Assembly: GCA_029880325.1 (NCBI GenBank)
Contig: JAOUOP010000009.1
Coordinates: forward strand, 57,012-121,011
Direction of reading: 5' to 3'
DNA: 64,000 bases
Origin: Myxococcales bacterium
GTDB lineage: Bacteria; Myxococcota_A; Polyangia; Polyangiales; JAFGIB01
Shown here in pieces: positions 10,781 through 55,918 of this stretch. The first letter of the stretch is position 1. Each line of letters starts with the position of its first letter. Below the pieces are notes generated by a model, which saw nothing but the letters and a program-made list of their open reading frames with translations, made no database searches and was not told where the DNA came from. Both the position numbers and the translations under genes were made by a program.

Positions 10781-10791
10781 CGTCGATGCTC

Positions 10792-14692: not shown

Positions 14693-14958
14693 GGCCCCAT
14701 GGTGCCGAGGGCCGTGAGGATGCCGACGGTGAACTCGCTCAGCTGCGTCAACATCCAGGGCCCGGCCGCCCCCAGCGTAGCCACCGCGGCGAGCGCCTTG
14801 GGCCCAAAGGCCACCGCCTGGTCATTGACCTGGGTGGCGGCCTGCAAGATCGCCAACAAAAGGCCCACCACCAGCACCACCAGCACCGTGGGGCCGGCCA
14901 CCATCATCGCCGTGAACAGCGCCTGGCGAAACCAGTCCAGCGCATAGGACGCGGTCAC
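14689..14958 (-). CDS. fliQ: Flagellar export protein FliQ
   Basis: 89 aa with two TM segments, located between fliP and fliR. Confidence 0.88.
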   Translation of the reverse strand: MTASYALDWFRQALFTAMMVAGPTVLVVLVVGLLLAILQAATQVNDQAVAFGPKALAAVATLGAAGPWMLTQLSEFTVGILTALGTMGP

Positions 14959-18704: not shown

Positions 18705-18718
18705 GACTCTTCAGAAGA

Positions 18719-18733
18719 GCACGTCCCGTGCCA
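18719..18733 (-). promoter_or_regulatory. Candidate sigma54 -24/-12 promoter upstream of fliL
   Basis: Minus strand reads TGGCACGGGACGTGC (GG-N10-GC), followed by a 14-nt spacer (tcttctgaagagtc) to ATG 18704. Confidence 0.6.
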
Positions 18734-18868
18734 ACGCCGTGCCCGCAATTCGCGGGGGAATTCCCCCCCAAAGGCGCTCTCGAGCGACAAAAGCTCGACT
18801 TCCGGAAGCGCGCGGGCGACGGCGTCGTGACGGTGGTTTTCCATGGCGAATCGAGCCTCCAAAACCGA

Positions 18869-20164: not shown

Positions 20165-20216
20165 GTGTCTTTCCTTTTCGTTGTTTTCTCGTCCGGTGCG
20201 TGAAGCACGGTGCAGC

Positions 20217-20888: not shown

Positions 20889-20890
20889 GG

Positions 20891-21565
20891 TCAAACCTCC
20901 GTATCGATCGATTGCCAGCGGGGTGTGCCGCTCTTCTTGCTGGCGCGTTCGGACGCCATCGTGCGTGCCGCCAGCGTCGACAACTGCAAGTCGTGCTTGG
21001 CCAGCGCCGCCCGCAGAGCCGAGCCCTGGGCGAAGAGGGCGGCGACCGCGGCGCTGTTGGAAAGCGTGGCGCGCAGCTGTACGGCGCGGCCCTCGAGCAA
21101 GAGCTCGAGACTGATCGGACCCAGCTGCGGATGGCGCAAATTGACCACGGCAGCGCTGGCGCCCGACTCGTGGGGCACAAGGCGAACCTCGATGCCGGGC
21201 GCCTTTGCGGCCGGCTGGGGCGCATGGGGCTTTGCGCCCGCCGGTGAACCGGCGGCGTTCGGAGTCTCGGCAGCCGGCCCCGGCCGCGCTTCGACCAGGA
21301 CCTGAATCACCTGCTCGGCCACCCATACGGCACTGACCAGCAGCGCCGCCTCCGCGGTCGCATCTTCGCGTGCGTAGGTGGTGTGCTGCGGCGGCCCGGC
21401 TGCGTCGACCTTGAGCGCCTTCTGGACCGGAGCGCTCAGGCCGAGCGCTCCTCCCAGCGTTCGCCGAAAGCCCAGAGGCGACGCTTCGAGCGGCGACGCG
21501 CTTCGTCCGAGCGAGCCTTCCGCGAGCTGGGGCCCCCGGCCGAGTGACTGCGTCGTGGCTTTCAC
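20891..21565 (-). CDS. fliK: Short FliK-like hook-length control protein
   Basis: 224 aa. The C-terminus VVNLRHPQLGPISLELLLEGRAVQLRATLSNSAAVAALFAQGSALRAALAKHDLQL fits the Flg_hook domain pattern. Located between fliJ and flgD. Confidence 0.7.
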   Translation of the reverse strand: MKATTQSLGRGPQLAEGSLGRSASPLEASPLGFRRTLGGALGLSAPVQKALKVDAAGPPQHTTYAREDATAEAALLVSAVWVAEQVIQVLVEARPGPAAETPNAAGSPAGAKPHAPQPAAKAPGIEVRLVPHESGASAAVVNLRHPQLGPISLELLLEGRAVQLRATLSNSAAVAALFAQGSALRAALAKHDLQLSTLAARTMASERASKKSGTPRWQSIDTEV

Positions 21566-21990
21566 CGCGGACCTCCCCGCTGGGCCAGATCGTCGTTTTC
21601 GCGCTGCTCGGCCCGCTGCTGCGACTGACGCCGCTCCTGCAGCGCCTGATCGCGCAGATGCTCGAAGCTACGCAGCTCGCGATCAATGTGCCTGACCGCC
21701 TCCACGCGGAGAGTCTGCTCTTGCTCGCAGCGGACCAGGTGCTCGGCCGCGCGAGCCAGACTCCCGCGCGCCATCTCCGCCAGTGACGCCCTGAGGCCCA
21801 CGTCAACAGCCGCCGCCGGCGCGGCCACCGCAAGTTCGCGCCCTAGACGAAGGCGATCGACCCTCGCGCCCTCGAGTTCCTCGCGCGCCATGTGCAGGTC
21901 GACCAGCGCCGCCGCAGCCTCGAGTTGCCGCATCTTCTTCAGACGTCGTTTGGTCGAAACCAGACGAGAGAGACCCTTGGGATCGCGCAT
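21562..21990 (-). CDS. fliJ: Flagellar export chaperone/stalk protein FliJ
   Basis: 142-aa coiled-coil protein immediately after fliI. Confidence 0.75.
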   Translation of the reverse strand: MRDPKGLSRLVSTKRRLKKMRQLEAAAALVDLHMAREELEGARVDRLRLGRELAVAAPAAAVDVGLRASLAEMARGSLARAAEHLVRCEQEQTLRVEAVRHIDRELRSFEHLRDQALQERRQSQQRAEQRENDDLAQRGGPR

Positions 21991-23333
21991 CAGCTACCCT
22001 CCATCGTTTCGGCCGGTGCCGACAGCGCCGCCGCAAGCTCGCGGTGGGCGGTACCGAGCGTCACCGGCTCGTCACTGCCCTGACAGAAAACCCGTGTCAG
22101 CGCCGGCATCGCCAGAATGGCTTCATCGAAAAGAGGGACCGTCCCCCCCTTGTACGCCCCGATCGCCAGCAAATCCTCGACCTCCGCATAGGCCGCCATC
22201 AACTCCCGAACACGATGGGCCAGCGCCATCTGATCGCGGCTGACCAACTGGGGCATCACGCGCGAGAGCGAGGCGGGAATGTCCACGGCGGGAAAGTGCC
22301 CTCGGTCGGCGAGCTTGCGCGACAGGAGGATGTGACCGTCGAGAATCGCGCGCACCGAATCGGCGATCGGATCACTCATGTCGTCGCCCTCCACCAGCAC
22401 GGTGTAGATTCCCGTGATGCTGCCAGAGCCTTCGCAGGGACCGGCGCGCTCGAGCAATCGGGGCAGAGCCGCGAAGACGCTCGGTGTGTAGCCCTTGGTG
22501 GCGGGTGGTTCACCCACGGCCAGTCCGATCTCGCGCAATGCCATGGCGTAGCGCGTCAGGCTATCCATCACCAAGAGCACCTGCTTGCCCTGGGCCCTGA
22601 AGTACTCGGCCACAGCCGTTGCATAGAGCGCGCCTCGCGCCCGGAGCAGCGGCGGATCGGAGCTGGTGGCCGCAATCACGACCGAGCGCATAAGCCCTGC
22701 GCGCGACAACGTACGGTTGACGAACTCTTCGACTTCTCGGCCACGCTCTCCGATCAGCGCGATCACTGCCACCTCGGCCGCCGCCTCGCGCACCATCAGA
22801 CCCAGGAGTGTGCTCTTGCCGACTCCTCCGCCGGCAAAGATGCCCATGCGCTGACCGCGGCCCATTGTCAGCATGGAGTCAATAGATCGAACACCCACCC
22901 ACATGGGCTCCTCCACCGGCCTGCGCAACAGCGGGTTGACGGGCGTACCCTCGAGCGGAACCCGCGCTTCGCAGTTGCTCAAGGGCTTGCCGTCAAGGGG
23001 CCGACCGAGGCTGTCGACCACGCGCCCCAAGAGGCCCGGTCCGACGGCAGCCGTGGCCGCGTCGCCCGCACGGTGCAATGTGGAGCCGACCACGAGCCCC
23101 TGAGTGCTACCCAGGGGCATCAACAGTGTGCGCTCACCGCGAAAGCCCACGACCTCGGCCTGCACCGGTACACGGCTGTGTTGAGAGCGCACCTCGTAGA
23201 GGTCCCCTACCGAAGACCTGCAATCGCCGGCCTCGAGCAACAGGCCAACCACGTCCAGGAGCCGGCCCTGGAGCGTAGGCCGAGCCACCTGCGCCACAAT
23301 CTTTTGGTACTTGCCGAGATCGATGGCCGTCAT
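21990..23333 (-). CDS. fliI: Flagellum-specific ATPase FliI
   Basis: Walker A GIFAGGGVGKSTLLG, Walker B VLLVMDSLTR, and F1-ATPase-like sequence over the full length. Confidence 0.95.
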   Translation of the reverse strand: MTAIDLGKYQKIVAQVARPTLQGRLLDVVGLLLEAGDCRSSVGDLYEVRSQHSRVPVQAEVVGFRGERTLLMPLGSTQGLVVGSTLHRAGDAATAAVGPGLLGRVVDSLGRPLDGKPLSNCEARVPLEGTPVNPLLRRPVEEPMWVGVRSIDSMLTMGRGQRMGIFAGGGVGKSTLLGLMVREAAAEVAVIALIGERGREVEEFVNRTLSRAGLMRSVVIAATSSDPPLLRARGALYATAVAEYFRAQGKQVLLVMDSLTRYAMALREIGLAVGEPPATKGYTPSVFAALPRLLERAGPCEGSGSITGIYTVLVEGDDMSDPIADSVRAILDGHILLSRKLADRGHFPAVDIPASLSRVMPQLVSRDQMALAHRVRELMAAYAEVEDLLAIGAYKGGTVPLFDEAILAMPALTRVFCQGSDEPVTLGTAHRELAAALSAPAETMEGS

Positions 23334-24001
23334 CAGTTCGCCTCCAGCTCGGCATCAAAGGCCTTGCGCACCGAACGCAGCCGCTCGTCGATGCGACCGT
23401 CGACGTGCCCCAGCTCGCTCTGCAACACGCCGCCAAGGCCCTCGATGGAGGGGTCGAGCACGAAGCGCACACGGACGCCGTCGATCACAGCAGTATCGTC
23501 GCCGAGCACCTCACACAGGGCGCCATGGGCGTCAGGGGAGACCGCAACGCGCGCCTCGCGCACATCACCCAATGTTTGAATGGCCGCGCGCACGAAGCGC
23601 TGGTGCAATGCCGGGTCGAGCTGCACCTCGCGCTCGACCAGCACGCTGGCGATGGTCACCGCCAGATCGAGCAGCTGTGCTTCGGCCGCGCGCGCCGCCT
23701 CCGCCTTGACCACCCCGAGTTCGAGCGCCGCCTGAGCAAAAACGCCCGCCTGGGCCATCAGGCGATCTCGCGCGCGCTCGGTCTCGAGCTGCTCGGCCCG
23801 AAGCTGCGCCATCATCTCTTCAAGCGGATCGACCTCGGGCTCTTGCGGCGGCGCCTCGATGGCTTCACCGATCGTACGCAGAAGGAGCGGCCGCACTTCA
23901 TCGCCGCGGGCGTCGATCCAGGCGGTGTTGCGGCCATCGCGACTCACCGCACCGCCGGAAGTCGAGGGAAAACGAATGCGTCGGGGATCAGACATAGCCA
24001 C
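23333..24001 (-). CDS. fliH: Flagellar export ATPase regulator FliH
   Basis: 222 aa with a central charged coiled coil and a FliH C-domain. Located between fliG and fliI. Confidence 0.8.
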   Translation of the reverse strand: MAMSDPRRIRFPSTSGGAVSRDGRNTAWIDARGDEVRPLLLRTIGEAIEAPPQEPEVDPLEEMMAQLRAEQLETERARDRLMAQAGVFAQAALELGVVKAEAARAAEAQLLDLAVTIASVLVEREVQLDPALHQRFVRAAIQTLGDVREARVAVSPDAHGALCEVLGDDTAVIDGVRVRFVLDPSIEGLGGVLQSELGHVDGRIDERLRSVRKAFDAELEAN

Positions 24002-25040
24002 CCTCCCCTTCCCGGGCGATGTTGATGCGACCTTCGCGCTCGAGGTTCAGAGCTGCCTCCACGATCGCCTGCTTGGCCTCTTCCACGTCGGAAATGCGTA
24101 CCGGCCCGAGCAGGTCTAGCTCCTCGCGCAAGACGGTTGCGGCTCGCGCCGAGAGGCTTCCAAAGACCTTCTCCTTCAAGTCTTCGCTCGCGGTCTTGAG
24201 GGCGGTCACCAGCTGCTCGGTAGAGACTTCCTTGAGTAGAAGCTGCATGCCGCGGCTCTCCACGCGGACGAGGTCTTCAAACGTGAACATCGAGCTACGC
24301 AAGGAATCAGCTACGGATCCATCGAGGGTGGCCAGCTCCTCGATCAGAGCCTCGGTGCGCTCGGCGTCCATGTTCTTGAGCATGGCCACCGCCGCTTCCA
24401 TGCCTTCCACTTCATAACGACCCGCGTCGGTGAAGGACTCGACCTCGGTGGCAAACTGACGCTCGAGATCCTCTATCACGCTGGTTGGCACGCTTTGCAG
24501 CTGCGCAAGACGCATCATGATCTCAGCCTGCCTCTCGGTGGGCATGTCCCCCAGGATCTGAGCGGCGCGGGTGGGCGCGAAAAGTGAGAGAATCAGAGCG
24601 ATGGTCTGCGGATGTTCGCGTTCGAGCACACCCAGGATGGTGGGCACCTCGAGCTTGGAGAGTGCCTCCACCGGCCCCCGCGCGCCCATCTCGTCGGTCC
24701 AGAGGTCAGCGGCCTTGCCCTCGCCAAGCGCCTTGCCTACCAATCGCCGAAGGTACGCACTGCTGCCCTTGAGGCTCGTGGGCACGCCCTGCTGCATGCG
24801 CAGAGCAAACTCCTGATGGATGGAGGAAACCGCAGTGGGCTCAACCTCCTTCAGCTGAAGAGCCGCTGCGCGGAGCAGCTTCACCTCGGCGTCATTGAGA
24901 TGCGACAGCACGCGGGTTGCGACCGCTTCGTCCAGGCTGACCAAAAACAAGAGGCTCTTCTGAACGCCGGTCAGTCCTCGCTGCATCGCGAGATCAGCTC
25001 CGGTCTCCTCATCGGTTTTGGTCAGCGCGTCGCTCATCAC
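23988..25040 (-). CDS. fliG: Flagellar rotor protein FliG
   Basis: 350 aa. GVQKSLLFLVSLDEAVATRVLSHL and MFTFEDLVRVESRGMQLLLKEV are hallmark FliG motifs. Confidence 0.95.
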   Translation of the reverse strand: MMSDALTKTDEETGADLAMQRGLTGVQKSLLFLVSLDEAVATRVLSHLNDAEVKLLRAAALQLKEVEPTAVSSIHQEFALRMQQGVPTSLKGSSAYLRRLVGKALGEGKAADLWTDEMGARGPVEALSKLEVPTILGVLEREHPQTIALILSLFAPTRAAQILGDMPTERQAEIMMRLAQLQSVPTSVIEDLERQFATEVESFTDAGRYEVEGMEAAVAMLKNMDAERTEALIEELATLDGSVADSLRSSMFTFEDLVRVESRGMQLLLKEVSTEQLVTALKTASEDLKEKVFGSLSARAATVLREELDLLGPVRISDVEEAKQAIVEAALNLEREGRINIAREGEGGYV

Positions 25041-26632
25041 CGCTGCTCCGTGATCCAGCCCTTGATCACGCGGGCCGCGCTTTCGGGCTCGCTATTGGCG
25101 AGTTCCGCCGCCAGCGCCCGCATCTCGTCAAGGTCTTCGCCCTTGCCGCCGCTGGCCGCGACCGCCATCGCACCAGGGACTCCGGGCAGCGCCATCGGCT
25201 GGGAACCATCGCCGAGCTGATGCGCTTCCAAGGCCGACTGTGGGGCGAGGCGAGCGCTGGCGCGCAGCAGCGCGAGCACGAAAATCAGCAAGCACAGCAA
25301 CACGATCGCCCAGCCGAGATAGGGAAGCAGCGGCTGAGCCACGTGAACCGCATCGCCCACGGTGAAGCCTGGTTCCGGCGGCGACTCCACCGCCGCGAAG
25401 GGCACGCACTCGATGGTCACCTTGTCGCCACGCTCGGTGTCGATGCCAACCGCTGTGGCCACCAGATCCTTCAGGCGCGCCAGTTCTTCTTCGCCACGCT
25501 TTTCAAAGACCCGCTGCTCGCCCTTGGTCTTCCAGATGCCGTCTACGATCACGGCCACCTGGAGGCCCTTGACCTGACCCACCGGCTCGACGGCGTGGCG
25601 CACGACCTTGCTGACCTCGTAGTTGCGGGTCTCGGTTCGCCGCACCAGACCATCACGCCCGGCGGCGCCCGCCTCCGGCGCTTCACCGCCAGGTAGATTC
25701 GAAGGAGTGCCCGGCACACCACCCACTCCGCGATCGGTACCGGCCTTGGATTCCTCGCTAATCTGAAAGCTGCGCGAGGCGATGGTCTCGGGGTCGTAGC
25801 GCTCTTCGGTCCGCTCCTCCCTGGTGAAATTCACCGCCGCCGACACCCGCACCATGGAGTGTTCCTTGCCCAGTGCGGTATCCAGAAGCTCCTGCGCCGC
25901 CAGCTCGCGCGCGCGCTCCACCTCGCGGCGAAAACCCAGGGCGTCACTCGCAAGGTCTTTGTCGTCGGTACTCTCTGCGCCCAGGGCCCGACCCTGGCCA
26001 TCGACGACGGTGACGGCGCTGGCATCCAAGCCGCGCACCGCAGAGGCCACCAGGTAAACGATGCCACGAATCTGCTCTTCGCCAGTACGGAAGCCGGTTC
26101 GCGTATGTAGAACGACCGAGGCCGAAGCCTGTTGCTCGCCGCTGCGGAAAAGCGAACGCGAAGGCAAAACAAGATGCACCCGGGCTCGCTCGACTCCCCG
26201 CAGGTGCCCGATGGTGCGCGCCAGCTCACCCTCGAGGGCACGGTGATACTTCACCTGCTCGGCAAACTCGGTCTCGCCAAAGCGTTGCTCGTCGAAGACC
26301 TCGAAGCCCACGCTTCCGCCATCGAGCACGCCCTCGCCGGCCAGTCGGAGGCGCACCTCATGCACCTTGTCCGCCGGGACGCGTACGGTGCCGGCAGGCT
26401 GCACCTCATGGGGAATGTTCAGGCTCTGCAGCCGCTCGACAATGCGGGCTTCCTCATCGCCGTCGAGGTCGGAGAAGAGCACCGCGTCGCCCGGACCGAT
26501 GCCTCCCATGGAAGTACTGATCAGCACCAGCGCGAAAACCGCGATGAAGGCAGCGACGCCAAGCCGAGCCACCCCTCCAAGAGCGGCCCAGCGGGCGCCG
26601 ACAACTCCTATCGCGTTGCGCAGGGCTTCCAT
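25037..26632 (-). CDS. fliF: Flagellar MS-ring protein FliF
   Basis: 531 aa. N- and C-terminal TM segments flank a YscJ/FliF periplasmic domain. Confidence 0.93.
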   Translation of the reverse strand: MEALRNAIGVVGARWAALGGVARLGVAAFIAVFALVLISTSMGGIGPGDAVLFSDLDGDEEARIVERLQSLNIPHEVQPAGTVRVPADKVHEVRLRLAGEGVLDGGSVGFEVFDEQRFGETEFAEQVKYHRALEGELARTIGHLRGVERARVHLVLPSRSLFRSGEQQASASVVLHTRTGFRTGEEQIRGIVYLVASAVRGLDASAVTVVDGQGRALGAESTDDKDLASDALGFRREVERARELAAQELLDTALGKEHSMVRVSAAVNFTREERTEERYDPETIASRSFQISEESKAGTDRGVGGVPGTPSNLPGGEAPEAGAAGRDGLVRRTETRNYEVSKVVRHAVEPVGQVKGLQVAVIVDGIWKTKGEQRVFEKRGEEELARLKDLVATAVGIDTERGDKVTIECVPFAAVESPPEPGFTVGDAVHVAQPLLPYLGWAIVLLCLLIFVLALLRASARLAPQSALEAHQLGDGSQPMALPGVPGAMAVAASGGKGEDLDEMRALAAELANSEPESAARVIKGWITEQR

Positions 26633-26635
26633 CGA

Positions 26636-26986
26636 TCAGGCCCCCATCCGCATCACTTCGCGGTAGGCGTCGATCAGGCGGTTGCGCACGCTCGACAGCG
26701 TGCGCAGGGAGATGTCGGCCTGTTCCATCGCGATCATGGTGCCGTGGATGTCGTGGCTCTTGCCCTCGGCAAACTCCGCGGTCCTCGCGTCGGCCGTCTT
26801 GTGCTGGGCGTCGACCTCCTTGACCATTTGCTGAAGGTGATCTGCGAAACTGCGCGCGCCTTCGACCGCGCTCTCGTCACCGAGCTGCAGTGGGCGCTCG
26901 GCCAGGGCCGGCTTGGCAATTTCCGGTCGCGACTGGATCGGGGTTTGCTGCGTGAGCAGGGCGGGAGGAAGTCCGAGCGGTGCCAT
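26636..26986 (-). CDS. fliE: Flagellar hook-basal body protein FliE
   Basis: 116 aa. The C-terminus HGTMIAMEQADISLRTLSSVRNRLIDAYREVMRM is the FliE pattern. Confidence 0.9.
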   Translation of the reverse strand: MAPLGLPPALLTQQTPIQSRPEIAKPALAERPLQLGDESAVEGARSFADHLQQMVKEVDAQHKTADARTAEFAEGKSHDIHGTMIAMEQADISLRTLSSVRNRLIDAYREVMRMGA

Positions 26987-26988
26987 CT

Positions 26989-27444
26989 TCAGGATCCGAT
27001 GGAAAGGGCCGACTGGGCCATGCCTTTGATGGTCTGCATCACGGTGACCCCTGACTCGTATGCGCGCGATGCGGTGATCAAGTTCACCATCTCCTCGACA
27101 GCGTTGACGTTGGGAAGCGCCACGAAACCGCGCTCATCGGCATCCGGATGCGAGGGATCGTACATCTGCTGCGGGGGCGCTTGGTCGCGGCGTAACTCGC
27201 TGACCTCGACGCGGTAGACCGCGGTGGGCTCGGCTCCCGCGGCGTTGGCCACAGCATCGGCGAAACGGTTGTCGGTATTCACGGGGACGGCCTGAAAGAC
27301 CGGATCGATGCGCTTGTAGGGCCCTCCCTCGGCCGTGCGCGTGGTGCGGGCGTTGGCCAGGTTCGAGGCCAGGGCGTTCATGCGCGCCCGTTGGGCATCG
27401 AGACCCGAAGATGCGATCTCCATCGCTGAAAAGAAGTCCATCAT
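26989..27444 (-). CDS. flgC: Flagellar rod protein FlgC
   Basis: M(M)DFFSAMEIASSGLDAQRARMNALASNLANARTT. Start is ATG 27444 or 27441, downstream of GGAG. The track ORF begins at 27474. Confidence 0.92.
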   Translation of the reverse strand: MMDFFSAMEIASSGLDAQRARMNALASNLANARTTRTAEGGPYKRIDPVFQAVPVNTDNRFADAVANAAGAEPTAVYRVEVSELRRDQAPPQQMYDPSHPDADERGFVALPNVNAVEEMVNLITASRAYESGVTVMQTIKGMAQSALSIGS

Positions 27445-27496
27445 CGTTCTCCTTGGGCCGCCGAGGCCCTCCACCTACCGTCGAGCGCCGTCACCA

Positions 27497-27895
27497 TCAG
27501 CCGTTGCCTCCGGTGGCCGCGTAGCGCAGCATCCCCAGGTGCTTGGAGATGAAACGCGCGGCGGCCTGGTAGCGCAGATCATTGGCCGCGAGCTTCGACA
27601 TCTCACGCTCGAGGCTGACGGAATTGCCGTCGGCGCCGACCGGAGCGGTCGTGTCCTCGACCCTGTGAACACCCTCGAGCCCCGGGCCGGCGCTCGCCGG
27701 ATTTAGGTGGCTCTTCTCGGTACGCGCCAACGGCAGCGTTCTGCCCTGCTCCACTTCACTGTCGCGCAAGATGTCGACGGGGCGAAATCCCGGGGTCTCG
27801 ACGTTGGCGATATTGGAAGCTACGACGTTATGGCGCTCGCGGTGGTACTCGAGAGCCTGCGTCAGAGCTTGGGCGCCATTGGACAGCGGCAGCAT
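27497..27895 (-). CDS. flgB: Flagellar rod protein FlgB
   Basis: MLPLSNGAQALTQALEYHRERHNVVASNIANVETPGFRP. The track start at 27913 is a TTG lying inside the sigma54 motif, so ATG 27895 is preferred. Confidence 0.9.
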   Translation of the reverse strand: MLPLSNGAQALTQALEYHRERHNVVASNIANVETPGFRPVDILRDSEVEQGRTLPLARTEKSHLNPASAGPGLEGVHRVEDTTAPVGADGNSVSLEREMSKLAANDLRYQAAARFISKHLGMLRYAATGGNG

Positions 27896-27909
27896 GGCCA
27901 GAATACGAA

Positions 27910-27924
27910 GCAACCTTCATGCCA
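27910..27924 (-). promoter_or_regulatory. Candidate sigma54 -24/-12 promoter upstream of flgB
   Basis: Minus strand reads TGGCATGAAGGTTGC (GG-N10-GC, TTGC -12 box), followed by a 14-nt spacer (ttcgtattctggcc) to ATG 27895. A sigma54 activator gene lies directly upstream. Confidence 0.6.
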
Positions 27925-48250: not shown

Positions 48251-49099
48251 TCAGCTCGCCGCCTCCAGCGCGGCGCTCGGCACAGCTTTTTTTCGGTAGG
48301 CGACAGCCCGCTCGAAGCGCGTGAGCTGGTAGTCGTCGTCGATGCCCAAGGTGGTCTCGGAGCCGCCCAGGAAAAAGTAGCCCTCGTGATCCATCACGCC
48401 GCGCACCCTGCGCAAGATGGTCTTCTTGGTGGCCGTGTCGAAGTAGATCAGCACGTTGCGAATCAGGACCAGATCCATCCTGGGGATCGCAGGCCAGGCG
48501 GACGCCAAGTTCATCTGGCGAAAGTCGATCAGCTCGCGCAGCTGTTGCTTGACCTGCCACTGGGCACCGTTTTTGTCGAAGTACTTGACGAGCATGCGCG
48601 CGGGTAACCCGCGATTGACTTCGAGCTGCGAATACAGACCTTCCTGGGCCCGGGCCAGCACCTGGGTGTCGATGTCGGTGCACAACATTTGAACCGAGCG
48701 CCGATCCAGGCCCTTGATGCAATTGGCCAGGGTCATCAGCACACTGTAGGGCTCCTGGCCGGTCGAGGTCGCACCGCACCAAATGCGGATCGGCTGCCGG
48801 CCGCGGCGCGCGACGATGTCCGGAATGACCTTCTGCTCCAGCGCACGATAGACACCGGCGTCCCGGAAGAACGACGTCTCGTTGGTCGTCATGGCCTCGA
48901 CCACCTTGCGGTGCAGCTCACCCCAACGGCTCGCGCGCAGCCGTCTGATCAGCTCGGCGACGCTTTCGAGCTTCTCCGAACGAACCAAGGTCCCCAAGCG
49001 CGCATCGACCAGATAGACCTTCGTGTCGTCGAGCACGATGGCAGAGTTGTCACGCACCATGGTTTGGATGTACTGGAATTCGGCGGGGGTAACACCCAT
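48251..49099 (-). CDS. cheR: Chemotaxis methyltransferase CheR
   Basis: TTNETSFFRD, a SAM-binding IWCGATSTGQEPYS motif and LIRNVLIYFD. Confidence 0.93.
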   Translation of the reverse strand: MGVTPAEFQYIQTMVRDNSAIVLDDTKVYLVDARLGTLVRSEKLESVAELIRRLRASRWGELHRKVVEAMTTNETSFFRDAGVYRALEQKVIPDIVARRGRQPIRIWCGATSTGQEPYSVLMTLANCIKGLDRRSVQMLCTDIDTQVLARAQEGLYSQLEVNRGLPARMLVKYFDKNGAQWQVKQQLRELIDFRQMNLASAWPAIPRMDLVLIRNVLIYFDTATKKTILRRVRGVMDHEGYFFLGGSETTLGIDDDYQLTRFERAVAYRKKAVPSAALEAAS

Positions 49100-49103: not shown

Positions 49104-50225
49104 CTACTCCTGTACCGCGACCCGCGCGGCTACACTCAACGCACCGCGTCCCGATCGGGACGCCAAGACACGACGCACCAGCTCCCTTCCCAATTCCTTG
49201 GGCGGTAGCGTGACGCTGCTGAGCCCGGCACGAACGACGTGGCCGGGCATGCCCCACACCACCGAACTCGCTTCGTCCTGAGCCATGATCAGGGCGCCCC
49301 GATCGCGGAGCTTCTCACAGCCCAGCAAGCCGTCCTGACCCATGCCCGTGAGGATTACCCCCAGAGCTCGGCCACCGTAGAGCGTGGCGACCGACTCGAA
49401 GAGCACATCCACCGCGGGACGGCAGAAATGGACCGGAGCCCCCTGGTCGAGCTTCACCGTGACTTTCGGGGAAGCGCTGAGTCTCATGTGATGGTCGCCC
49501 GGCGCGATCAACGCCTGACCCGGTATCAGCGCCTCGCCCCCCTTGGCTTCTGCCACACCGATCTTGCACTGCCCGTCCAGGCGCTCGGCCAAGAAACGGG
49601 TGAACACCGGTGGCATGTGCTGAACCAACACAAGCGGCACGGGGAAGTCCGCCGGGAACACCGAGAGAAACTCCGCCAGCGCGTTGGGGCCTCCAGTGGA
49701 GGACCCGACGGCCACCAGCTCCACCGGCTGCGACGGTGGCGGCCGCAGAGGGCGCACCACGCGCCGCGGCTCGGACTTCGCTGCGGCCTTGGCGGGAGTG
49801 AATACGGGCTTGGTCGGCCTGGGTCCGAAGGCTTTGATCTTGGGGATCAGCTCCTTGCGCAGGCGATCGAGGGACTCGGTGACGCTGCCCACGTTGGCGG
49901 GCTTGGTGACGTAGTCGTTGGCACCCAGGGCGAGCGCATCGAGCGTTGCCACCGCTCCGCGCTCGGTCAGGGTGCTGAACATTATAACCGGAAGTTTTGG
50001 ATAGAGCTTGCGAATTTCCGCAAGGGTCGCGAGCCCGTCCATCTCCGGCATTTCCATGTCCAGCGTCACCACGTCAGGCTGCAGCTGCTGAATCTTGTTG
50101 AGGCCGATCCTGCCGTGGGCGGCGCTGCCCACGACCTGCAGGGCCGGATCCTCACCGAGGGTGGTGGTCAGAATGCGCCGTACGACGATCGAGTCGTCGA
50201 CGACGAGCACGCGAATGGCAGACAC
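49104..50225 (-). CDS. cheB: Chemotaxis methylesterase/deamidase CheB
   Basis: REC domain (IRVLVVDDS...VVTLDMEMPEMDG) plus an esterase domain (GSSTGGP, ...GMGQDG...). Confidence 0.93.
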   Translation of the reverse strand: MSAIRVLVVDDSIVVRRILTTTLGEDPALQVVGSAAHGRIGLNKIQQLQPDVVTLDMEMPEMDGLATLAEIRKLYPKLPVIMFSTLTERGAVATLDALALGANDYVTKPANVGSVTESLDRLRKELIPKIKAFGPRPTKPVFTPAKAAAKSEPRRVVRPLRPPPSQPVELVAVGSSTGGPNALAEFLSVFPADFPVPLVLVQHMPPVFTRFLAERLDGQCKIGVAEAKGGEALIPGQALIAPGDHHMRLSASPKVTVKLDQGAPVHFCRPAVDVLFESVATLYGGRALGVILTGMGQDGLLGCEKLRDRGALIMAQDEASSVVWGMPGHVVRAGLSSVTLPPKELGRELVRRVLASRSGRGALSVAARVAVQE

Positions 50226-50596
50226 TAGCCCCCCCCGACGCCGAGAAGCTCGAGCTTCTCCTGAATTACCTCTTTGGTAAAAGGCTTCATCACGTACTCG
50301 TCGGCGCCCGCGTCCAGTGCCTGCTGCATTTGCTCCAACTCCGACTCGGTGGTGACCATCATCACTCGCATCGAGTCGAAATCTGAGCGCGTGCGAATCA
50401 TGCGCACGAAGTCGTAGCCGTTCATCTCCGGCATATTCCAGTCGACCAAGGCGAGCTCGGGGTGCTCGACTTCGCGCAGCAGCTGCAGCGCGTCCAGACC
50501 ATGGGCCGCTTCGAGAACCTCGAATCCCACTTCCTTCAGAATCTTGCCGAGGATCTTCCTCATCGCGGTCGAGTCGTCGACTACCAATGCTCGCAT
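50225..50596 (-). CDS. cheY: Chemotaxis response regulator CheY
   Basis: 123 aa from ATG 50596. MRALVVDDSTAMRKIL...LALVDWNMPEMNG...YVMKPF. The track ORF extends upstream into the spacer. Confidence 0.9.
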   Translation of the reverse strand: MRALVVDDSTAMRKILGKILKEVGFEVLEAAHGLDALQLLREVEHPELALVDWNMPEMNGYDFVRMIRTRSDFDSMRVMMVTTESELEQMQQALDAGADEYVMKPFTKEVIQEKLELLGVGGG

Positions 50597-50694: not shown

Positions 50695-53064
50695 TCAACC
50701 CTTTTGCAGCTCTGCCGCCATACGATTGAGTTCCTCGGCGGCGCGTTGGCAATCGGCCGCTCCGGTCGTCGTGCTCTGAGCCGCGTCCGCGACCGCCGTG
50801 ATGTTCTCGGCGATCTCGGCGCTGCCGCGTGCGGCCTCGCTGATGTTGCGGCTGATGTCGCTGGCGGTCGCGGTCTGCTCCTCAACCGCCGTGGCGATGG
50901 TCACCTGGATGTCGTTGATCTGCTTGACGATCTCGTTGATCTGGGCGATGGCCTCGACAGCGCCGTTGGTGTCGCCCTGGATCGCCTCGATCTTCTGGCT
51001 GATGTCCTCCGAGGCGGTGGCCGTTTCCTTGGCCAACTCCTTGACCTCGTTGGCCACGACGGCAAATCCCTTGCCGGCTTCGCCCGCGCGCGCCGCCTCG
51101 ATGGTGGCGTTGAGCGCCAGCAGGTTGGTCTGCTGCGCGATGGAGGTGATCACCTTGATGACCTTGCCGATCTCCGTGCTGCTCTCACCCAACTTGGCCA
51201 CGGTGGCGTTGGTGCGCTCTGCCAGCTCGACACCCGTGGTGGCGACGCCCGAAGCATCGCTGGCGTTTTGCGCGATCTCCTTGATGCTGGCGCCCAGCTG
51301 CTCCATGCCGGCGGCCACGGTCTGCACGTTGCGGCTAACCTGCTCGCTGGCAGCCGAGACCACGTTGGCCTGGGCCGAGGTTTCCTCGGCGTTCGAAGCC
51401 ATCTGTTGACTGACAGCGAGCAGCTCCTCCGACGAGGTTGCAAGCGCGGTCTGCAGCTCGGCTGCGGTCTTTTCGTCGGCCACTTGCTGGGTGATGTCCG
51501 ACCAGGTCACCATGGCACCGATGTAGTCGCCCCGATTGTCGTAGATCGGGCTGACCAGCAGATCGAGGGTGGCCGGGCCCACCCCGATCTTGGCGTTGTG
51601 CGGCAAGTTGCTGGAGTCGGAGAGCAGGGCGCGCTGATGGGCTGGATTCTTGTGGAAAACGTCGATGCAGGTGCCCACGAGATCGTCGACCCGAACCGGT
51701 AGGTATTGCTCGAGGGTCTTGAGCGTACGCGTGGACGCGGGGTTTACGTACTGGATGACGTTGTCGCGGTCGGCGAACATCACGTTGACCGGCGCGTTCT
51801 CCATCATCGAGTTCACGCGCGCCATTTCGCGCTCGAGCTTCAGCCGATCGGTCACCACCTCCCAGGTCACCATCGGTCCCACGAACTGCCCGTCGGTGCC
51901 GTAGACGGCGCTGACCAGGAGGTCGAGGTACTCGCCTCCGAGTTCGATGACCGCGCGGTGGGGAAGGTTCCTGGGGTCACCCAGGAGTTTCCGCTGGTGG
52001 GATGGATTTTTGTGAAAGATGTCGACCGACGAGCCCACCACCTCGCTGGCGCGGCAGGGCAAGAGGTGCTCGATCTTCTTCAGCGTCTCGACCGAAGCCT
52101 TGTTGATATAGCGGATCACCAGATCGGTGTCGGCGAACATCACGTTCAGCGGCGCCCCATCGAGCATGGTGCGGTACTGTGCCAGATCGTCATCGTCGGA
52201 AGCGGCGCGGTCGCTTACGTTTTCCCAGCTCGCAACGTAGCCCTCGATCTTGCCCTTGTCGTCGAGCATGGCCTGAAAGCGCGTCTCGATGGTGGCCTCG
52301 CCCAGCTGCACGCTGCTGCTCTCGGGCAGCTTGCGCGGATCGGAAAGCAACCTCTTGGCCTTGCGACCGCGCTCGTGCAAGTCGAAGAGGTCGGCCCCCT
52401 CCCAGTCGTCGACGCCCCAGCCCAACGCCTCCAACGCGCTTTCGGGCAGCTCATCGAGGGCCTGTCGTGCCGCCTCGTTGGCGTGGGTAATCTTCAAGTT
52501 GGCCCCGGCCACAAAAATGCAGACCGGCGCCGCATCGAGCGCGACCTGACTCACGCGCGCCATCTCACCGGGCGGTTTGGGCACAGCCGACAAATGTGCG
52601 GGCGGCTGCACGGACGTTCCATTGCTTCGCATCGACTTTCCTCCGTTCGCGGGCTTTTCTTCGCTCGCCCGAGTACTCTTTTGATTGACGACCGATTCCT
52701 TCACAGACGCGGCCACGCCCAGCACTTCGTTGGCCAGGGCGGAGGGCACGCGCAGGGACTTCAGCGCGGCCCTGAGGTGCAGGGCCACGGCCTCGAAGTG
52801 CTCGCCCTCGATCGGAAGATGCGCATGGGCATCCTTCATGCTGCGACCCCGGTAGCGGTTCGGCCCCCCGAACGCATGGGTCAGGAAATCCACCTGCTGA
52901 TTCTTGAGCCAGCGGATATCGACGCCCTCGAAGAACGGCTCCAGGCTATCGTCGCTCAAGACGCGCAGGTAGAGTTCGTCGACCACCGCACGGATGGCCT
53001 TGCGGCCTCCGAGGCGTTCGAAGAGCGGCGGGGTGCTAGCGGCTGCGTTTGCGGAACGTGACAT
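50695..53064 (-). CDS. Soluble methyl-accepting chemotaxis protein: truncated hemoglobin + 3 PAS + MCP signalling domain
   Basis: aa 10-125, [70 protein letters not shown], fit the group I trHb pattern. Three PAS-like repeats follow, two carrying (D)IFHKNP. The C-terminal hairpin has [28 protein letters not shown]. No TM segment is present. Confidence 0.85.
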
Positions 53065-53101
53065 TGATGGGCTCTCCTGGAAAATCGCTCGGAATGTTCT
53101 T

Positions 53102-53563
53102 TCAGTTGACCGTGGCGTGATGCCGGCTTTCGCCGCCGACGGTGTTGATGGCGCGGTCGATATCGAGAATCAGCAGCAATTTGCCCTCGAGCTTGTAGAC
53201 GCTGCTGACCAGTTCGCGGGTAACGTCCCGCAGGGTGGCCGGGGGCGACTCGATGCAGTCGTCGTCGACTTCCATCACATCGCCGATCTCATCGACCAGG
53301 AGGCTGACCGGACCGTCTCCCGTACGCACGACGACGTTCATCGGAAGTTGGCCCTCGTCTGCATCGGGCAGGAGAAAGCGGCGCCTGAGATCGATGGCCG
53401 TCACGATCTGCCCCCGCAGGTTGATGAGCCCGCGCACCACCTTGGAGACGATAGGAACGGGAGTCATCTGCTGATAGCGCAGAACTTCCTGAACTTTTTC
53501 CACCTCGACCCCGAAGAAGAGGTCGCCGAGGTGAAAGGTGCAAATCTGATGGGTCTCGTGCAT
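53102..53563 (-). CDS. cheW: Chemotaxis coupling protein CheW
   Basis: 153 aa. [22 protein letters not shown] and [19 protein letters not shown]. Confidence 0.92.
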
Positions 53564-53566
53564 CGC

Positions 53567-55918
53567 TCAGGCTCCCGCCGCCATCGGCAAGCTGTCTTCG
53601 AATATATGACTGGAGACCGTGGAGACGACGGCATCGAGGTCGATCAACTCGACCACGCGCCCCTGCACCACGGTTGATCCGAGCACCCCGTTGCGTCGCC
53701 CGACTGGACGCAGATCGACGTGCTCGTCGACGATGTCGCGAATCGTGTCCACAGCCACGCCCACGTTGCGACCATTCTGGGAGTAGACCACCACATGCAT
53801 CACGTCGCGGTCACCCCCTCCGGAACCAATGTTGGGGTGATTGACTACGGCACCCAGGTGGGCGACCGGCATGATGTCGCCTCGGTACTGGATCACGTCG
53901 TAGGTGCCCACGCTCTCGAGCGCAGTCGCTGGCAGTTCCTCGAGCCGCGCGACTTTGGAAAGCGGAATCGCAAAAGGGCGTTGATTGACGTCCACCAGGA
54001 GCAGCGTTTGACGGTCACCACGCTCAGAGGATTCCGACTCGAGCACCTCGCTCAGGTCGCGCGCCTGGGCTTCGGAGATGACACGGGCCTGCTGCGCCAG
54101 ACCGAGCACGTCCAGGATCAACGCCACGCGCCCATCTCCCATGATGGTCGCGCCCGCGAACGCGCTGGCAGCCTTGAGCTGCTTGCCCAGGGGCTTGACC
54201 ACGATTTCCTCGGTGTCCTGCACCCCGTCGACCACCAGTCCAAACTGGCGATCGTCTGCCTGCAGCACCACGATATTGCAGATTTCGTCCTGCCCATCGG
54301 TTGGGGATTCAATGCCCAACTCCTGATTGAGGTATACGAGCGGTAGAAGTTGGCCGCGCAGCCGGTAAACGGGCGCCGACTGGATACGCTCGATACCGCT
54401 GCGCACCTGCTCGCCTTCCAGCCGCACGAGTTCCAGCAAACTGACCTGCGGGATCGCGTAGCGCTCCCCCCCACAGCGCACGATCAGGGCGGGGATGATG
54501 GCCAGCGTCAGGGGGATCTTCACCTTGAAGGTGGTTCCCTTGCCGGGCGCACTGTGGAGGTCGACAGTGCCACCGATGCGCTCGATGTTGGTCTTGACCA
54601 CGTCCATACCGACGCCCCGACCCGAAACATTGGTGACCTGCTCCGCCGTCGAAAAGCCTGGCAGGAAGATCAAGTTGAGCAATTGCCGCTCACCCATTCG
54701 CGACAGCTGCTCGGCGCTGAGTAGACCGCGGTCGAGGGCACGCTGCTTGAGCTTCTCCGGCGAGATGCCGGCGCCGTCGTCGGCGATCTCAATGTTGACC
54801 TGACCACCCTCGTGATAGGCGCGCAGCTGCAGCACGCCCACCGGATCCTTGCCCGCGGCCCTGCGATCATCGGGGCGCTCGATGCCGTGGTCGACGCAGT
54901 TGCGGACCAGGTGCGTCAACGGGTCCTTGATCGCCTCGATCAGTGTACGGTCAAGACCGGTCTCCTTGCCTTCCATCTCTAGGCGGACCTGTTTGCGACA
55001 GGTTCTGGCCAGGTCTCGAACGACCCGCGGTAGTTTGCTCCAGACGGTGCCGATGGGCTGCATACGCGTGCGCATCACGCCCTCCTGCAGCTCCGTGGTC
55101 ACCAGGTTCAAGCGCTGGGTGGTGGCCTGTAACGCCTGGTTATCGACCTCATCGGCAAACTGCAAAATCTGGTTGCGAGCCAGAACCAGCTCTCCCACCA
55201 GATTCATCAGCTTGTCCAGGAGGTCTACGTGCACACGAATGCTGGAGTCGGCCACCGCTGTCGAGCCGGAGCGGCTTTCACTGCTGAAGGCCTCCTCGGA
55301 GTCGACCACGGCTGCGGCTTCGGGCACCTTCGTTTCAGTCGGCGGCGCGCTGGGAGCGGCGACCGGAGCTTGCGCAGCCGCCTCTTCGATCGCCTGCTCG
55401 AAGTCGGACTCGATTGTGGCTGCGACAGGAGCCGCTTCGGAGACGCCGGCCGACCGCGGCTCCACCTCGACCACGGGCTCGGAGGCCTGCGCTGCGGGCT
55501 CGGAGGCCTGCGCTTCGGCCTCCTCGCTGGCGCCGGGCTCGAGCAGACGTGTAAGTTCGGCCACGAGCGCCGAGTAATCGCCGTCGCCCTCTTCGCCCAC
55601 GTGCTCAATATTAGCCAGCATCTCACGCACGGCGTCGACAGTCTTGAGCAACGCCGTGGCGATGGCCCCGTCGAGCTGGATCGCGCCATCGCGAATCCGG
55701 CTCAGGAGGTTTTCACCGACATGGGTCAGGGCCTCGAGCTTGCTGTAGCCCAAGAAGCCGCAGGTACCCTTGATGGTGTGGATCGTCCGGAAGATGCGAG
55801 CGATGACCTCCGGCTCGTTGGGCGATTCCTCGAGTATCACCAGGTCGCGCTCGAGCTGGTCCAGGTTCTCGTAACTCTCGATCAAAAACTCTTGTACGAC
55901 GTCGTCGAGATCATCCAT
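53567..55918 (-). CDS. cheA: Chemotaxis histidine kinase CheA with two tandem CheW-like domains
   Basis: Hpt (RIFRTIHTIKGTCG), a dimerisation domain and HATPase (DDGAGI...GRGVGMDVV). The first CheW-like domain is CGGERYAIPQVSLLELV...GDGRVALILDV. The second is LLLVDVNQRPFAIPLSKVARLEEL...QGRVVELIDLD. Confidence 0.92.
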   Translation of the reverse strand: MDDLDDVVQEFLIESYENLDQLERDLVILEESPNEPEVIARIFRTIHTIKGTCGFLGYSKLEALTHVGENLLSRIRDGAIQLDGAIATALLKTVDAVREMLANIEHVGEEGDGDYSALVAELTRLLEPGASEEAEAQASEPAAQASEPVVEVEPRSAGVSEAAPVAATIESDFEQAIEEAAAQAPVAAPSAPPTETKVPEAAAVVDSEEAFSSESRSGSTAVADSSIRVHVDLLDKLMNLVGELVLARNQILQFADEVDNQALQATTQRLNLVTTELQEGVMRTRMQPIGTVWSKLPRVVRDLARTCRKQVRLEMEGKETGLDRTLIEAIKDPLTHLVRNCVDHGIERPDDRRAAGKDPVGVLQLRAYHEGGQVNIEIADDGAGISPEKLKQRALDRGLLSAEQLSRMGERQLLNLIFLPGFSTAEQVTNVSGRGVGMDVVKTNIERIGGTVDLHSAPGKGTTFKVKIPLTLAIIPALIVRCGGERYAIPQVSLLELVRLEGEQVRSGIERIQSAPVYRLRGQLLPLVYLNQELGIESPTDGQDEICNIVVLQADDRQFGLVVDGVQDTEEIVVKPLGKQLKAASAFAGATIMGDGRVALILDVLGLAQQARVISEAQARDLSEVLESESSERGDRQTLLLVDVNQRPFAIPLSKVARLEELPATALESVGTYDVIQYRGDIMPVAHLGAVVNHPNIGSGGGDRDVMHVVVYSQNGRNVGVAVDTIRDIVDEHVDLRPVGRRNGVLGSTVVQGRVVELIDLDAVVSTVSSHIFEDSLPMAAGA

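Follow-up and report, generated by a model that had tools for sequence, protein, structure and literature searches.

The window analysed here, a stretch of 64,000 nucleotides from a Myxococcales bacterium, carries on its minus strand a chemotaxis operon in which the gene at 50695-53064 encodes a soluble methyl-accepting chemotaxis protein (MCP) of 789 amino acids. The product combines an N-terminal truncated hemoglobin (trHb) of the HbN type (trHbN), three PAS domains and a kinase-control hairpin. The features of this gene are listed below (SD, Shine-Dalgarno sequence; GC3, G+C content at third codon positions).

53073..53078, minus strand: SD sequence AGGAGA of the annotated receptor start (start ATG 53062-53064; anti-SD duplex -7.4 kcal/mol)
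50695..53064, minus strand: receptor gene, open reading frame (ORF) with ATG start, 789 aa; soluble MCP with the order trHbN, linker, PAS1, PAS2, PAS3, kinase-control hairpin
52675..53037, minus strand: group I truncated hemoglobin domain, residues 10-130 (Pfam Bac_globin, HbN alignment, structural model)
52567..52674, minus strand: low-complexity, predicted disordered linker, residues 131-166 (GC3 0.60-0.67)
52639..52644, minus strand: in-frame internal SD sequence GGAGGA, encoded within N-G-G-K (its anti-SD duplex, at -9.5 kcal/mol, is more stable than that of the annotated start)
52630..52632, minus strand: internal ATG codon of M145, 6 nt past the SD hexamer, at which a putative isoform of 645 aa without the globin would start
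52198..52566, minus strand: PAS1, residues 167-289, a degenerate Aer2-like PAS domain (phmmer domain; aligned H230 and W280 retained)
51835..52191, minus strand: PAS2, residues 292-410, Aer2-type heme-PAS domain with the Eη-His H351 inside a 12-residue signature stretch and the Iβ-Trp W401
51490..51831, minus strand: PAS3, residues 412-525 (phmmer domain 412-530), Aer2-type heme-PAS domain with H471, L502, W521 and D523-I-T525
50698..51489, minus strand: kinase-control (MCP signalling) hairpin, residues 526-789 (MCPsignal E=8.5e-34), of 34-heptad type and without HAMP

Pfam searches of the product placed Bac_globin (PF01152) at residues 14-125 and MCPsignal at 599-764, with several PAS models matching in between, at 416-528. 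No transmembrane segment was detected in the receptor, the highest 19-residue Kyte-Doolittle mean (1.61) lying at the start of PAS1. A conserved hairpin tip, the absence of transmembrane segments, candidate methylation sites and CheA, CheW, CheR and CheB partners in the operon all mark the protein as a cytoplasmic MCP. A preliminary description of this DNA, made from the letters alone, had already read the gene as a soluble chemoreceptor without transmembrane segments, made of a group I trHb, three PAS repeats and an MCP hairpin and placed between cheW and cheY. These calls were upheld by Pfam on the receptor and on its neighbours, by sequence matches in the Protein Data Bank (PDB), by the AlphaFold2 model and by the hydropathy profile. 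Its interpretation fared less evenly: heme-based gas or redox taxis is the right class of sensor, given the trHb pocket, the three PAS domains, the soluble MCP and the che operon, but the contrast that it drew with Aer2, the role of main transmitter that it gave to the globin and its claim of novelty did not stand, for the reasons given below.

The globin belongs, judging from its sequence, to group I of the truncated hemoglobins and not to group II or III, as indicated by Gln at E11, Leu at E7, Val at G8 and the ranking of PDB matches. It matched Bac_globin with E=7.5e-22 (78.2 bits against a cutoff of 21), and no Protoglobin or Globin Pfam match was found in the receptor at E<=0.01. The top PDB sequence matches were all group I trHbs. 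Mycobacterium tuberculosis HbN (1idr) aligned without gaps over query residues 13-133 (E=7.5e-24) and was followed by cyanoglobin and by the Tetrahymena, Paramecium and Chlamydomonas trHbs (E from about 1e-24 to 1e-17), while the group II protein 2bkm reached only E=6.9e-5. The HbN alignment assigns Y32 to B10, F45 to CD1, L53 to E7, Q57 to E11 and H80 to F8; V93 aligns with the HbN Val at G8, and both Gly-Gly hinges (G19G20 and G66G67) are present. The AlphaFold2 model of the receptor, built on 18 homologues, gave the globin a pLDDT of 81-92, with helices B (20-37), E (50-64), G (87-103) and H (108-119); its one-turn F helix (76-79) and long pre-F loop are typical of 2-on-2 globins. The predicted domain superimposed on 1idr_A with a template modelling (TM) score of 0.88 and a root mean square deviation (rmsd) of 0.8 Å over 115 columns, and on the Paramecium trHb 1dlw with a TM score of 0.96. 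Thus the two checks proposed in the preliminary description, Bac_globin against Protoglobin and a structure prediction, were settled in favour of the truncated fold, and the proximal His that it had suggested within MKDAHAHL corresponds to H80 (codon 52825-52827), aligned to HbN His81 (F8).

The pocket was then compared across the family, represented by the best 120 database matches, query included. Among 74 aligned globin domains (72 from homologous receptors, the query and HbN), the F8 His and the CD1 Phe are invariant, while the B10 Tyr is found in 73 and the E11 Gln in 71. Since these residues are conserved almost throughout, the heme pocket is under purifying selection, and heme binding by the globin is very likely.

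The three PAS repeats were detected at residues 167-289, 292-410 and 412-530, and their sequences make them members of the Aer2 PAS-heme family. PAS2 matched the Vibrio cholerae Aer2 structure 6ceq with E=8e-18 and the Pseudomonas aeruginosa Aer2 structure 3vol with E=6e-16; for PAS3 the values were E=2.8e-19 and E=5.4e-17, and the P. aeruginosa structures aligned by both domains include 3vol and 4hi4. Modelled PAS3 superimposed on 6ceq_A with a TM score of 0.83 and an rmsd of 1.5 Å, within an overall range of 0.78-0.83 for the matches to Aer2 PAS structures. H351 of PAS2 and H471 of PAS3 sit in the motif (I/V)FHKNPxHQR, identical to that around His234 of P. aeruginosa Aer2 (PaAer2). In PAS3 the Hβ-Leu L502 aligns to PaAer2 Leu264 and D523-I-T525 to the D-R-T of its DxT motif, of which PAS2 retains only the Thr. 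PAS1 is more divergent: it shares 29-31% identity with PAS2 and PAS3 and matches 6ceq weakly (E=0.012, with the His aligned), its H230 stands in the degenerate context FDLHERG, and its W280 falls in the Trp column of the MAFFT alignment. In 434 PAS repeats from the 120 closest homologues, the His is conserved in 430 and the Trp in 432.

In characterised Aer2 PAS domains, the His ligates heme, the Trp forms a hydrogen bond with O2, the Leu is displaced and the DxT motif relays the signal (PMC10107281). With the complete set of Aer2 heme and ligand residues, PAS2 and PAS3 would be sensors in their own right. The preliminary description had recognized the three repeats and the (I/V)FHKNP...NLPH signature in two of them, now identified as PAS2 and PAS3, but had set the receptor apart from the heme-PAS type of Aer2. 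This contrast is mistaken, as the repeats are themselves of Aer2 type by FHKNPxHQR, the Iβ-Trp, the Hβ-Leu, the DxT of PAS3 and the match to the NCBIfam Vibrio Aer2 model NF041847 (E=1e-88, in three stretches). The receptor is thus a hybrid of a truncated hemoglobin and Aer2-type heme-PAS domains, predicted to be a soluble, multi-heme, Aer2-like receptor with up to four hemes per monomer. Longer arrays also occur in the family: in P0003, P0002 and P0016, six or seven Aer2-like heme-PAS repeats follow one another in tandem at a strict spacing of about 120 aa, whereas the largest characterised Aer2 receptors have three.

The coupling of the last PAS domain to the output is where the receptor departs from Aer2. 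In the 'Aer2 core', a di-HAMP unit directly follows PAS-heme and leads to the kinase-control module, modelled as 36 heptads in Vibrio vulnificus Aer2 (VvAer2) (PMC10107281). In the window receptor no HAMP match was found with Pfam. The last strand of PAS3 ends at residue 523 and, in the AlphaFold2 model, one continuous helix runs from 525 to 788 into the hairpin; only 259 residues follow PAS3, which leaves no space for a di-HAMP. The hairpin, which has a 19-residue tip sequence, aligned with Tsr with two symmetric 7-residue gaps, one per arm, which gives it a 34-heptad-type length (34H) in a heptad nomenclature of MCPs that reportedly goes back to Alexander and Zhulin in 2007. The EQ pairs E574-Q575 and E588-Q589 correspond in this alignment to positions 296/297 and 310/311 of Tsr, where 297 and 311 are methylation sites, and they are consistent with the presence of cheR and cheB in the operon. 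No C-terminal pentapeptide was found on the receptor. Membership of the Aer2 receptor family proper is excluded by the missing di-HAMP and 36-heptad module and by the NF041847 score of 298.6 bits against an equivalog cutoff of 1200.

Between the globin and PAS1, residues 132-171 (about 40 aa) had a pLDDT of 28-37 in the model, unlike the PAS1-PAS2, PAS2-PAS3 and PAS3-hairpin connectors, which are helices. The corresponding linkers of the family are 12-289 aa long, of low complexity and rich in A, S, G, T, E, K and P. Within the linker lies an in-frame SD sequence followed by an ATG (M145), and the surrounding motif M-(S/A)-N-G-(R/K)-F-K preceded by K-E-x-x recurs in the family. When eight genes were compared (the window gene, six homologues and L005, from a Moraxellaceae metagenome-assembled genome), all of them had a linker ATG with an SD sequence 5-10 nt upstream, the anti-SD duplexes ranging from -7.7 to -11.6 kcal/mol. 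In each case the linker SD was at least as strong as that of the annotated start, except in L001, where the two are about equal (-7.7 and -7.9 kcal/mol). Among 137 in-frame internal ATGs of seven genes (mean -3.7, sd 2.5), the linker sites took seven of the top nine ranks; in L005, no other Met codon scanned within the first 260 residues of the ORF had as strong a site. In each gene a different stretch of residues covers the SD (NGGKS, NKEQK, AKESG, KKEQT, QKEQT, QTEAT, GGKNE and AKEAA), so the constraint acts on the nucleotides. The pattern KExxM, encodable as AAG GAG NNN NNN ATG, is found at 21 of the 110 linker Mets, against none of the 1622 other Mets in the family (Fisher p~1e-26, a value inflated by sequence relatedness). 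In the window gene GC3 falls to 0.60 at the internal start, as it does at the 5' end of the gene, and mRNA structure at M145 is weak (-5.1 against -14.8±4.4 kcal/mol, z=+2.2). Initiation at M145 would leave a leader of 22 aa before PAS1; natural globin-less receptors have leaders of 1-42 aa, mostly 13-40. Taken together, these features suggest that the internal SD-ATG probably yields a second, globin-less isoform of 645 aa, and that the two isoforms would set the globin-to-receptor ratio. There is a precedent in chemotaxis, CheA-L/CheA-S (PMC13515050), beyond which our literature search on internal starts in chemoreceptor genes found nothing. In-frame internal ATGs with strong upstream SD-like sequences, among the strongest in the window, were also seen in the cheA gene of the window itself (M282, -10.8 kcal/mol, and M707, -12.1 kcal/mol).

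Some observations count against the use of this start. SD-like sequences inside genes can arise without initiation. In the window, 7 of 310 internal ATGs have an SD as strong (p~0.02, for the window only), and therefore the case rests on conservation across the homologues. The mRNA-structure test was supportive for the window gene, L001 and L087 and weak or null in the others, a clear signal in about three of eight genes. The site might then not be a working start at all, the full-length protein being the only product and the SD-ATG either a fossil ribosome binding site, left by the fusion of a trHb gene with an Aer2-like MCP gene, or a pause site that aids co-translational folding or heme loading of the globin. 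Such an origin would agree with the resemblance of the M-S-N-G-R-F-K motif after K-E-x-x to a former intergenic ribosome binding site and start, with the similar length of the leaders in natural globin-less receptors, with the occurrence of strong SD-like sites at about 2% of the internal ATGs of the window and with the inconsistent mRNA-structure signal. We nevertheless find it rather unlikely. The SD and the ATG were both retained in all eight genes, although the proteins are about 50% identical and the linker is otherwise unconserved; the varying amino acids point to selection at the nucleotide level; and KExxM is absent from all Mets outside the linkers. A pause site, moreover, would need no conserved ATG at the optimal spacing of 5-10 nt.

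The position of the globin in the family bears on its role. A trHb is present in 73 of the 120 proteins, N-terminal in 69 and C-terminal after the hairpin in four, with one protein carrying two in tandem; the other 47 have none. A globin-less receptor 58% identical to that of the window was found in the same cheA-cheW-MCP-cheY-cheB-cheR type of operon, and elsewhere the globin lies C-terminal to the MCP or is inserted in CheA. Because the tether is disordered and variable, the position movable and a globin-less receptor present in the same type of operon, the globin seems unsuited as a rigid allosteric input and looks like a tethered, array-localised accessory rather than a transmitter. Several arrangements of this kind were seen. 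P0072, P0082, P0098, P0115 and P0245 have a C-terminal trHb joined to the MCP hairpin by G/S/D-rich linkers without Met, and P0039 has two tandem N-terminal globins. P0202 (578 aa) is a CheA fragment with a group I trHb between two CheW-like domains (HATPase_c, Bac_globin, CheW); the window CheA (53567-55918) has two CheW-like stretches as well, without a globin.

The preliminary description had instead taken the globin as the main transmitting sensor. As spelled out here, this model makes the trHb the O2 or NO (nitric oxide) sensor of a 'trHb-coupled sensor', which docks onto PAS1 in a ligand-dependent manner and whose signal the PAS chain relays to the hairpin. The strong purifying selection on the globin pocket would fit such a role, as would the N-terminal location of 69 of the 73 globins, the usual place of an input domain. 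PAS1 of the window, being degenerate, could have become an adaptor, and a globin would add a different range to PAS domains whose characterised Aer2 relatives have similar O2 affinities (PMC10107281). These points are outweighed, in our opinion, by the disordered tether of widely variable length (about 40 aa in the window), by the globins found C-terminal to the hairpin or inside CheA, by the absence of the globin from 47 of 120 homologues and by the orthologous operons that work with globin-less receptors. PAS2 and PAS3 have complete Aer2 heme and ligand residues, PAS3 with its DxT too, and the conserved in-frame start behind the globin would make a protein that lacks it. We therefore regard the globin as primary sensor as improbable; signalling more likely takes place at the hemes of the PAS domains than at the globin, and most likely at PAS3.

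As for what a tethered globin would do, the physiological roles of trHbN are still debated, and HbN-type group I trHbs act as NO dioxygenases or ligand scavengers. We favour local gas conditioning: the globin may be an NO dioxygenase that keeps NO off the PAS hemes, or a module of very high O2 affinity that extends the response to low O2. This preference is based on the pocket, which matches that of HbN, and on the similar O2 affinities of the characterised Aer2 PAS domains, which also bind CO (PMC10107281).

The receptor gene lies in a minus-strand operon with the order double-REC, HDOD, cheA, cheW, receptor, cheY, cheB, cheR, and the window also contains a flagellar regulon. The corresponding features are as follows.

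57061..58302, minus strand: double-REC protein (Pfam), next upstream on the cheA strand
56164..57057, minus strand: HDOD protein (Pfam), directly upstream of cheA
53567..55918, minus strand: cheA, with Hpt, dimerisation and HATPase_c domains and two CheW-like stretches (Pfam)
53102..53563, minus strand: cheW (Pfam CheW E=3e-30), upstream of the receptor gene
50225..50596, minus strand: cheY, 123 aa, ATG at 50594-50596 after AGGAGA (Response_reg E=1.5e-28)
49104..50225, minus strand: cheB, REC and methylesterase (Pfam)
48251..49099, minus strand: cheR, methyltransferase (Pfam)
38125-38796: sigma-70-family sigma factor, FliA-like
710..36302, no single strand assigned: flagellar regulon with FlgK, a rod-binding (FlgJ-like) protein, FlgI, FlgH, two FlgF/G-type rod proteins, FlhA, FlhB, FliR, a FliM/N-type switch protein, FlgE, FliI, MotB and MotA (Pfam)
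28162-29649, within the flagellar span: sigma54 activator
29761-32518, within the flagellar span: two sensor kinases

The real cheY is the 123-aa gene and not the ORF of 175 aa listed at this place; a 123-aa gene call is also found in L088. We infer that the sigma factor at 38125-38796 is FliA. The organism is an uncultured, flagellated bacterium of high GC content (64-70%), and the metagenome record is ENA ERZ27296366. As the flagellar regulon lies in the same window, the Che system plausibly controls swimming.

The HDOD and double-REC genes possibly belong to the same signalling unit as cheA. The double-REC gene is preceded at 58344-60416 (minus strand) by a gene for a Ser/Thr protein kinase with a C-terminal thioredoxin-like and peptidyl-prolyl isomerase region, and the kinase, HDOD and double-REC genes might form an extra output or input branch of the Che system. 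A REC-EAL protein is encoded at 36408-37598. It was thus considered whether the cluster could be a system of alternative cellular function, with a receptor that would inform the HDOD and double-REC proteins of O2 or redox state in order to control, for instance, c-di-GMP (cyclic di-GMP) or gene expression. The location of these two genes directly upstream of cheA on the same strand and the nearby REC-EAL gene could be read in this way, and the Corallococcus coralloides homologue occurs in a non-flagellated organism without cheY nearby (PMC6194562). An output other than taxis nonetheless seems to us distinctly unlikely for the window, where single-domain CheY, CheB and CheR are encoded in the operon and a full flagellar regulon, including MotA/B and the FliM/N-type switch, lies about 12-47 kb away. 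CheX, a CheY-P phosphatase, is moreover common in homologous operons.

In three homologous loci, hemA (glutamyl-tRNA reductase; GlutR_N and Shikimate_DH) directly follows the receptor gene within the che operon (L002:8425-9684, L084:9572-10798 and L087:6903-8174); the window has no hemA at this position. Glutamyl-tRNA reductase performs the first step of heme synthesis, so its presence next to the receptor gene supports, circumstantially, a high heme demand. Four loci have a gene of about 118 aa between cheW and the receptor gene (L002:5513-5872, L084:6580-6936, L085:6605-6964 and L087:3626-3982), which is absent from the window and belongs to no Pfam family; its assignment to DUF420, a small membrane-protein family, was rejected, the match being sub-threshold (E=2.9e-5). 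Just downstream of cheR, two minus-strand genes of high GC3 and without Pfam match (45295-46542 and 46625-47770) contain motifs resembling c-type heme-binding sites, CDQCH and CGVSCH in one and CNNCH in the other. Genes of the DUF3570 (42388-43545) and DUF4266 families are close to this pair.

That the fused ORF is an artefact of mis-assembly or of a lost stop codon, the globin and the MCP really being separate genes, is suggested by the likeness of the linker to an intergenic region with its own SD and ATG, but has a negligible chance of being right, given that the identical protein occurs on at least two metagenome contigs, that 69 homologues from independent samples and several phyla carry the globin N-terminally in one continuous fusion, and that the reading frame is uninterrupted at eight DNA loci.

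The homologues contain two to seven PAS repeats with a period of about 120 aa, and their source names include Polyangiaceae, Bryobacteraceae, Planctomycetota, Eisenbacteria and Alphaproteobacteria. A search with the globin domain in 1.84 billion representative proteins returned 5036 relatives. Of ten long relatives with a single globin that were checked, eight proved to be MCPs, which may or may not contain PAS or HAMP; the other two are a CheA with a globin insert and a protein of globin and PAS domains only. The highest-scoring relatives of the globin domain, P0121-P0130, are multi-unit truncated hemoglobins with up to 12 repeats in a protein of 1882 aa. Three close poly-PAS-heme MCP homologues (P0069, P0078 and P0107) match classical Globin (PF00042) in place of Bac_globin, and different globin lineages may have been recruited to the receptor scaffold. 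A scan of genome contigs with the full-length alignment, keyed on MCP-tip peptides (16 residues), returned mostly generic MCPs, and only L005 had a globin fusion; L004 was discarded as a fusion locus, since it consists of a stand-alone trHb-like gene followed by an unrelated transmembrane MCP.

The architecture itself is not new, although it is experimentally uncharacterised. Sharma, Parales and Singer described Bac_globin+PAS+MCPsignal in silico in 2018, in Corallococcus coralloides Cc_4972 and six other complete genomes, as a putative aerotaxis receptor (PMC6194562). That study was computational and discussed sensing by FAD-type PAS domains, without the Aer2 heme signature (PMC6194562), and a July 2026 aerotaxis review cites the architecture as a prediction only (PMC13401364). 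Our literature search on trHb-MCP fusions found no experimental study and nothing beyond PMC6194562. Among bacterial chimeras of T-family globins, a globin review of 2020 names those of groups II and III only (PMC7475203), so group I fusions appear to be under-recognised in the globin literature. With this prior report and with 73 of the top 120 matches, query counted, carrying a trHb, the preliminary description overstated the case for a 'distinct' sensor; the survey of fusions that it had recommended showed them to be common in metagenomes. What was unreported, as far as our literature search showed, is the Aer2 heme-PAS identity with its HAMP-less coupling, and the conserved internal start.

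The window receptor can be compared with several known systems. Like the Aer2 receptors (PaAer2/McpB, V. cholerae VcAer2, tri-PAS VvAer2 and L. interrogans LiAer2), it is a soluble MCP with the Eη-His in FHKNPxHQR, the Iβ-Trp, the Hβ-Leu and a terminal DxT, and its gene lies in its own che operon. As in VvAer2, there are several tandem PAS-heme domains, the upstream ones probably modulating the last. Unlike Aer2, it has no di-HAMP between the last PAS domain and the kinase-control module, its hairpin is one heptad shorter per arm than the 36-heptad type (36H) of Aer2 and Tsr, and it bears an N-terminal trHb and an internal start, neither of which has been reported for Aer2.

Cc_4972 of C. coralloides shares the Bac_globin, PAS and MCPsignal domains, a cytoplasmic location without transmembrane segments, a cheA-cheW-MCP-...-cheB-cheR operon and the prediction of aerotaxis (PMC6194562). 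Its Cc-5 cluster has a kinase-like ABC1 gene after the receptor, as does the homologous locus L087. In contrast to Cc_4972, the window receptor has three PAS domains, with cheY in the operon and an adjoining flagellar regulon; C. coralloides is non-flagellated and its cluster contains ABC1 and ABM genes and no cheY. The 2018 work neither assigned the globin to group I nor noted the Aer2 heme-PAS domains, the disordered tether or the internal SD-ATG (PMC6194562).

HemAT and the other globin-coupled sensors are likewise soluble proteins with a heme globin fused to an MCP signalling domain and a predicted aerotaxis function. Their globin, however, is a 3-on-3 sensor globin (Protoglobin) with a continuous helical linker to the output, whereas the window protein has a 2-on-2 group I trHb, a disordered tether and three heme-PAS domains before the output, and these differences exclude it from the globin-coupled sensors of the HemAT type. 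With HbN and the other group I trHbs (cyanobacterial GlbN, Chlamydomonas THB1 and the ciliate trHbs) the globin shares about 42% identity, an ungapped alignment and an rmsd of 0.8 Å, and with HbN also the TyrB10, LeuE7, GlnE11, PheCD1 and HisF8 pocket, the Gly-Gly hinges and ValG8; those proteins are single-domain, unlike the globin fused here to a chemoreceptor. The E. coli CheA-L/CheA-S pair resembles the window gene in having an in-frame internal SD and ATG and a long and a short protein, the short form lacking the N-terminal module (PMC13515050). It differs in that the window gene encodes a receptor and not a kinase, and in that the short form would lose a heme globin rather than a phosphorylation site; use of the start is deduced here from conservation.

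In our judgement the best explanation, which we hold with moderate confidence, is that of an Aer2-like multi-heme gas receptor, most likely for O2, in which PAS3 signals into a HAMP-less 34H hairpin, PAS1 and PAS2 modulate and the trHbN is a tethered accessory, probably with two isoforms. Gas would bind the b-type heme of PAS3 (ligand H471), displacing L502 and engaging W521. The change would pass via D523-x-T525 into the helix that begins at residue 525 and, without a HAMP unit, reach the 34-heptad-type hairpin, which would regulate CheA through CheW, with CheY steering the nearby flagellar apparatus. CheR and CheB would adapt the receptor at E574/Q575 and E588/Q589. PAS2 (H351, W401) and possibly the degenerate PAS1 (H230, W280) may be upstream heme modulators as in Vibrio Aer2, a role described for the upstream PAS domains of Aer2 receptors (PMC10107281).

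Several points weigh against this explanation. Within it, heme binding, O2 as the ligand and the direction of signalling are deduced, as are initiation at M145 and what the globin specifically does. The signal of every characterised Aer2 receptor passes through a di-HAMP; none follows PAS3, whose coupling to the hairpin may therefore differ. A tethered globin could still signal through ligand-dependent docking. The argument for a role as NO dioxygenase or gas filter is the likeness of the pocket to that of HbN, and neither a reductase partner nor an NO-related gene was seen in the operon. The HDOD and double-REC genes beside cheA allow a non-flagellar output.

A more far-reaching proposal, which we advance tentatively and at somewhat less than even odds, is that one gene gives two receptors and that the trHb is a detachable accessory, brought to signalling arrays in several ways (at the N- or C-terminus of an MCP or as an insert in CheA), where it would not be a conventional input but would condition gases locally for the heme-PAS sensors, through NO dioxygenase activity (a 'gas filter') or as an O2 module of very high affinity.

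The heme aerotaxis receptors that have been characterised use either a sensor globin (HemAT) or heme-PAS domains (Aer2). The window family joins a third heme module, a group I trHb, to Aer2-type heme-PAS domains, and its members are widely distributed among uncultured Acidobacteriota, Planctomycetota, Myxococcota, Proteobacteria and other groups. The cultured carriers named in the 2018 paper, which include Corallococcus coralloides, Rubinisphaera brasiliensis, Phenylobacterium zucineum and Glaciecola nitratireducens (PMC6194562), make experiments feasible. The family raises the questions of how a PAS-heme signal reaches the kinase-control hairpin without the di-HAMP held essential in current Aer2 models, what a truncated hemoglobin tethered to a signalling array does, and whether internal starts give rise to isoforms of different function in chemoreceptors as they do in CheA. 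If the proposal of two isoforms and an accessory globin is true, the window gene would provide the first example both of a chemoreceptor with programmed N-terminal proteoforms and of a hemoglobin tethered to a signalling array.

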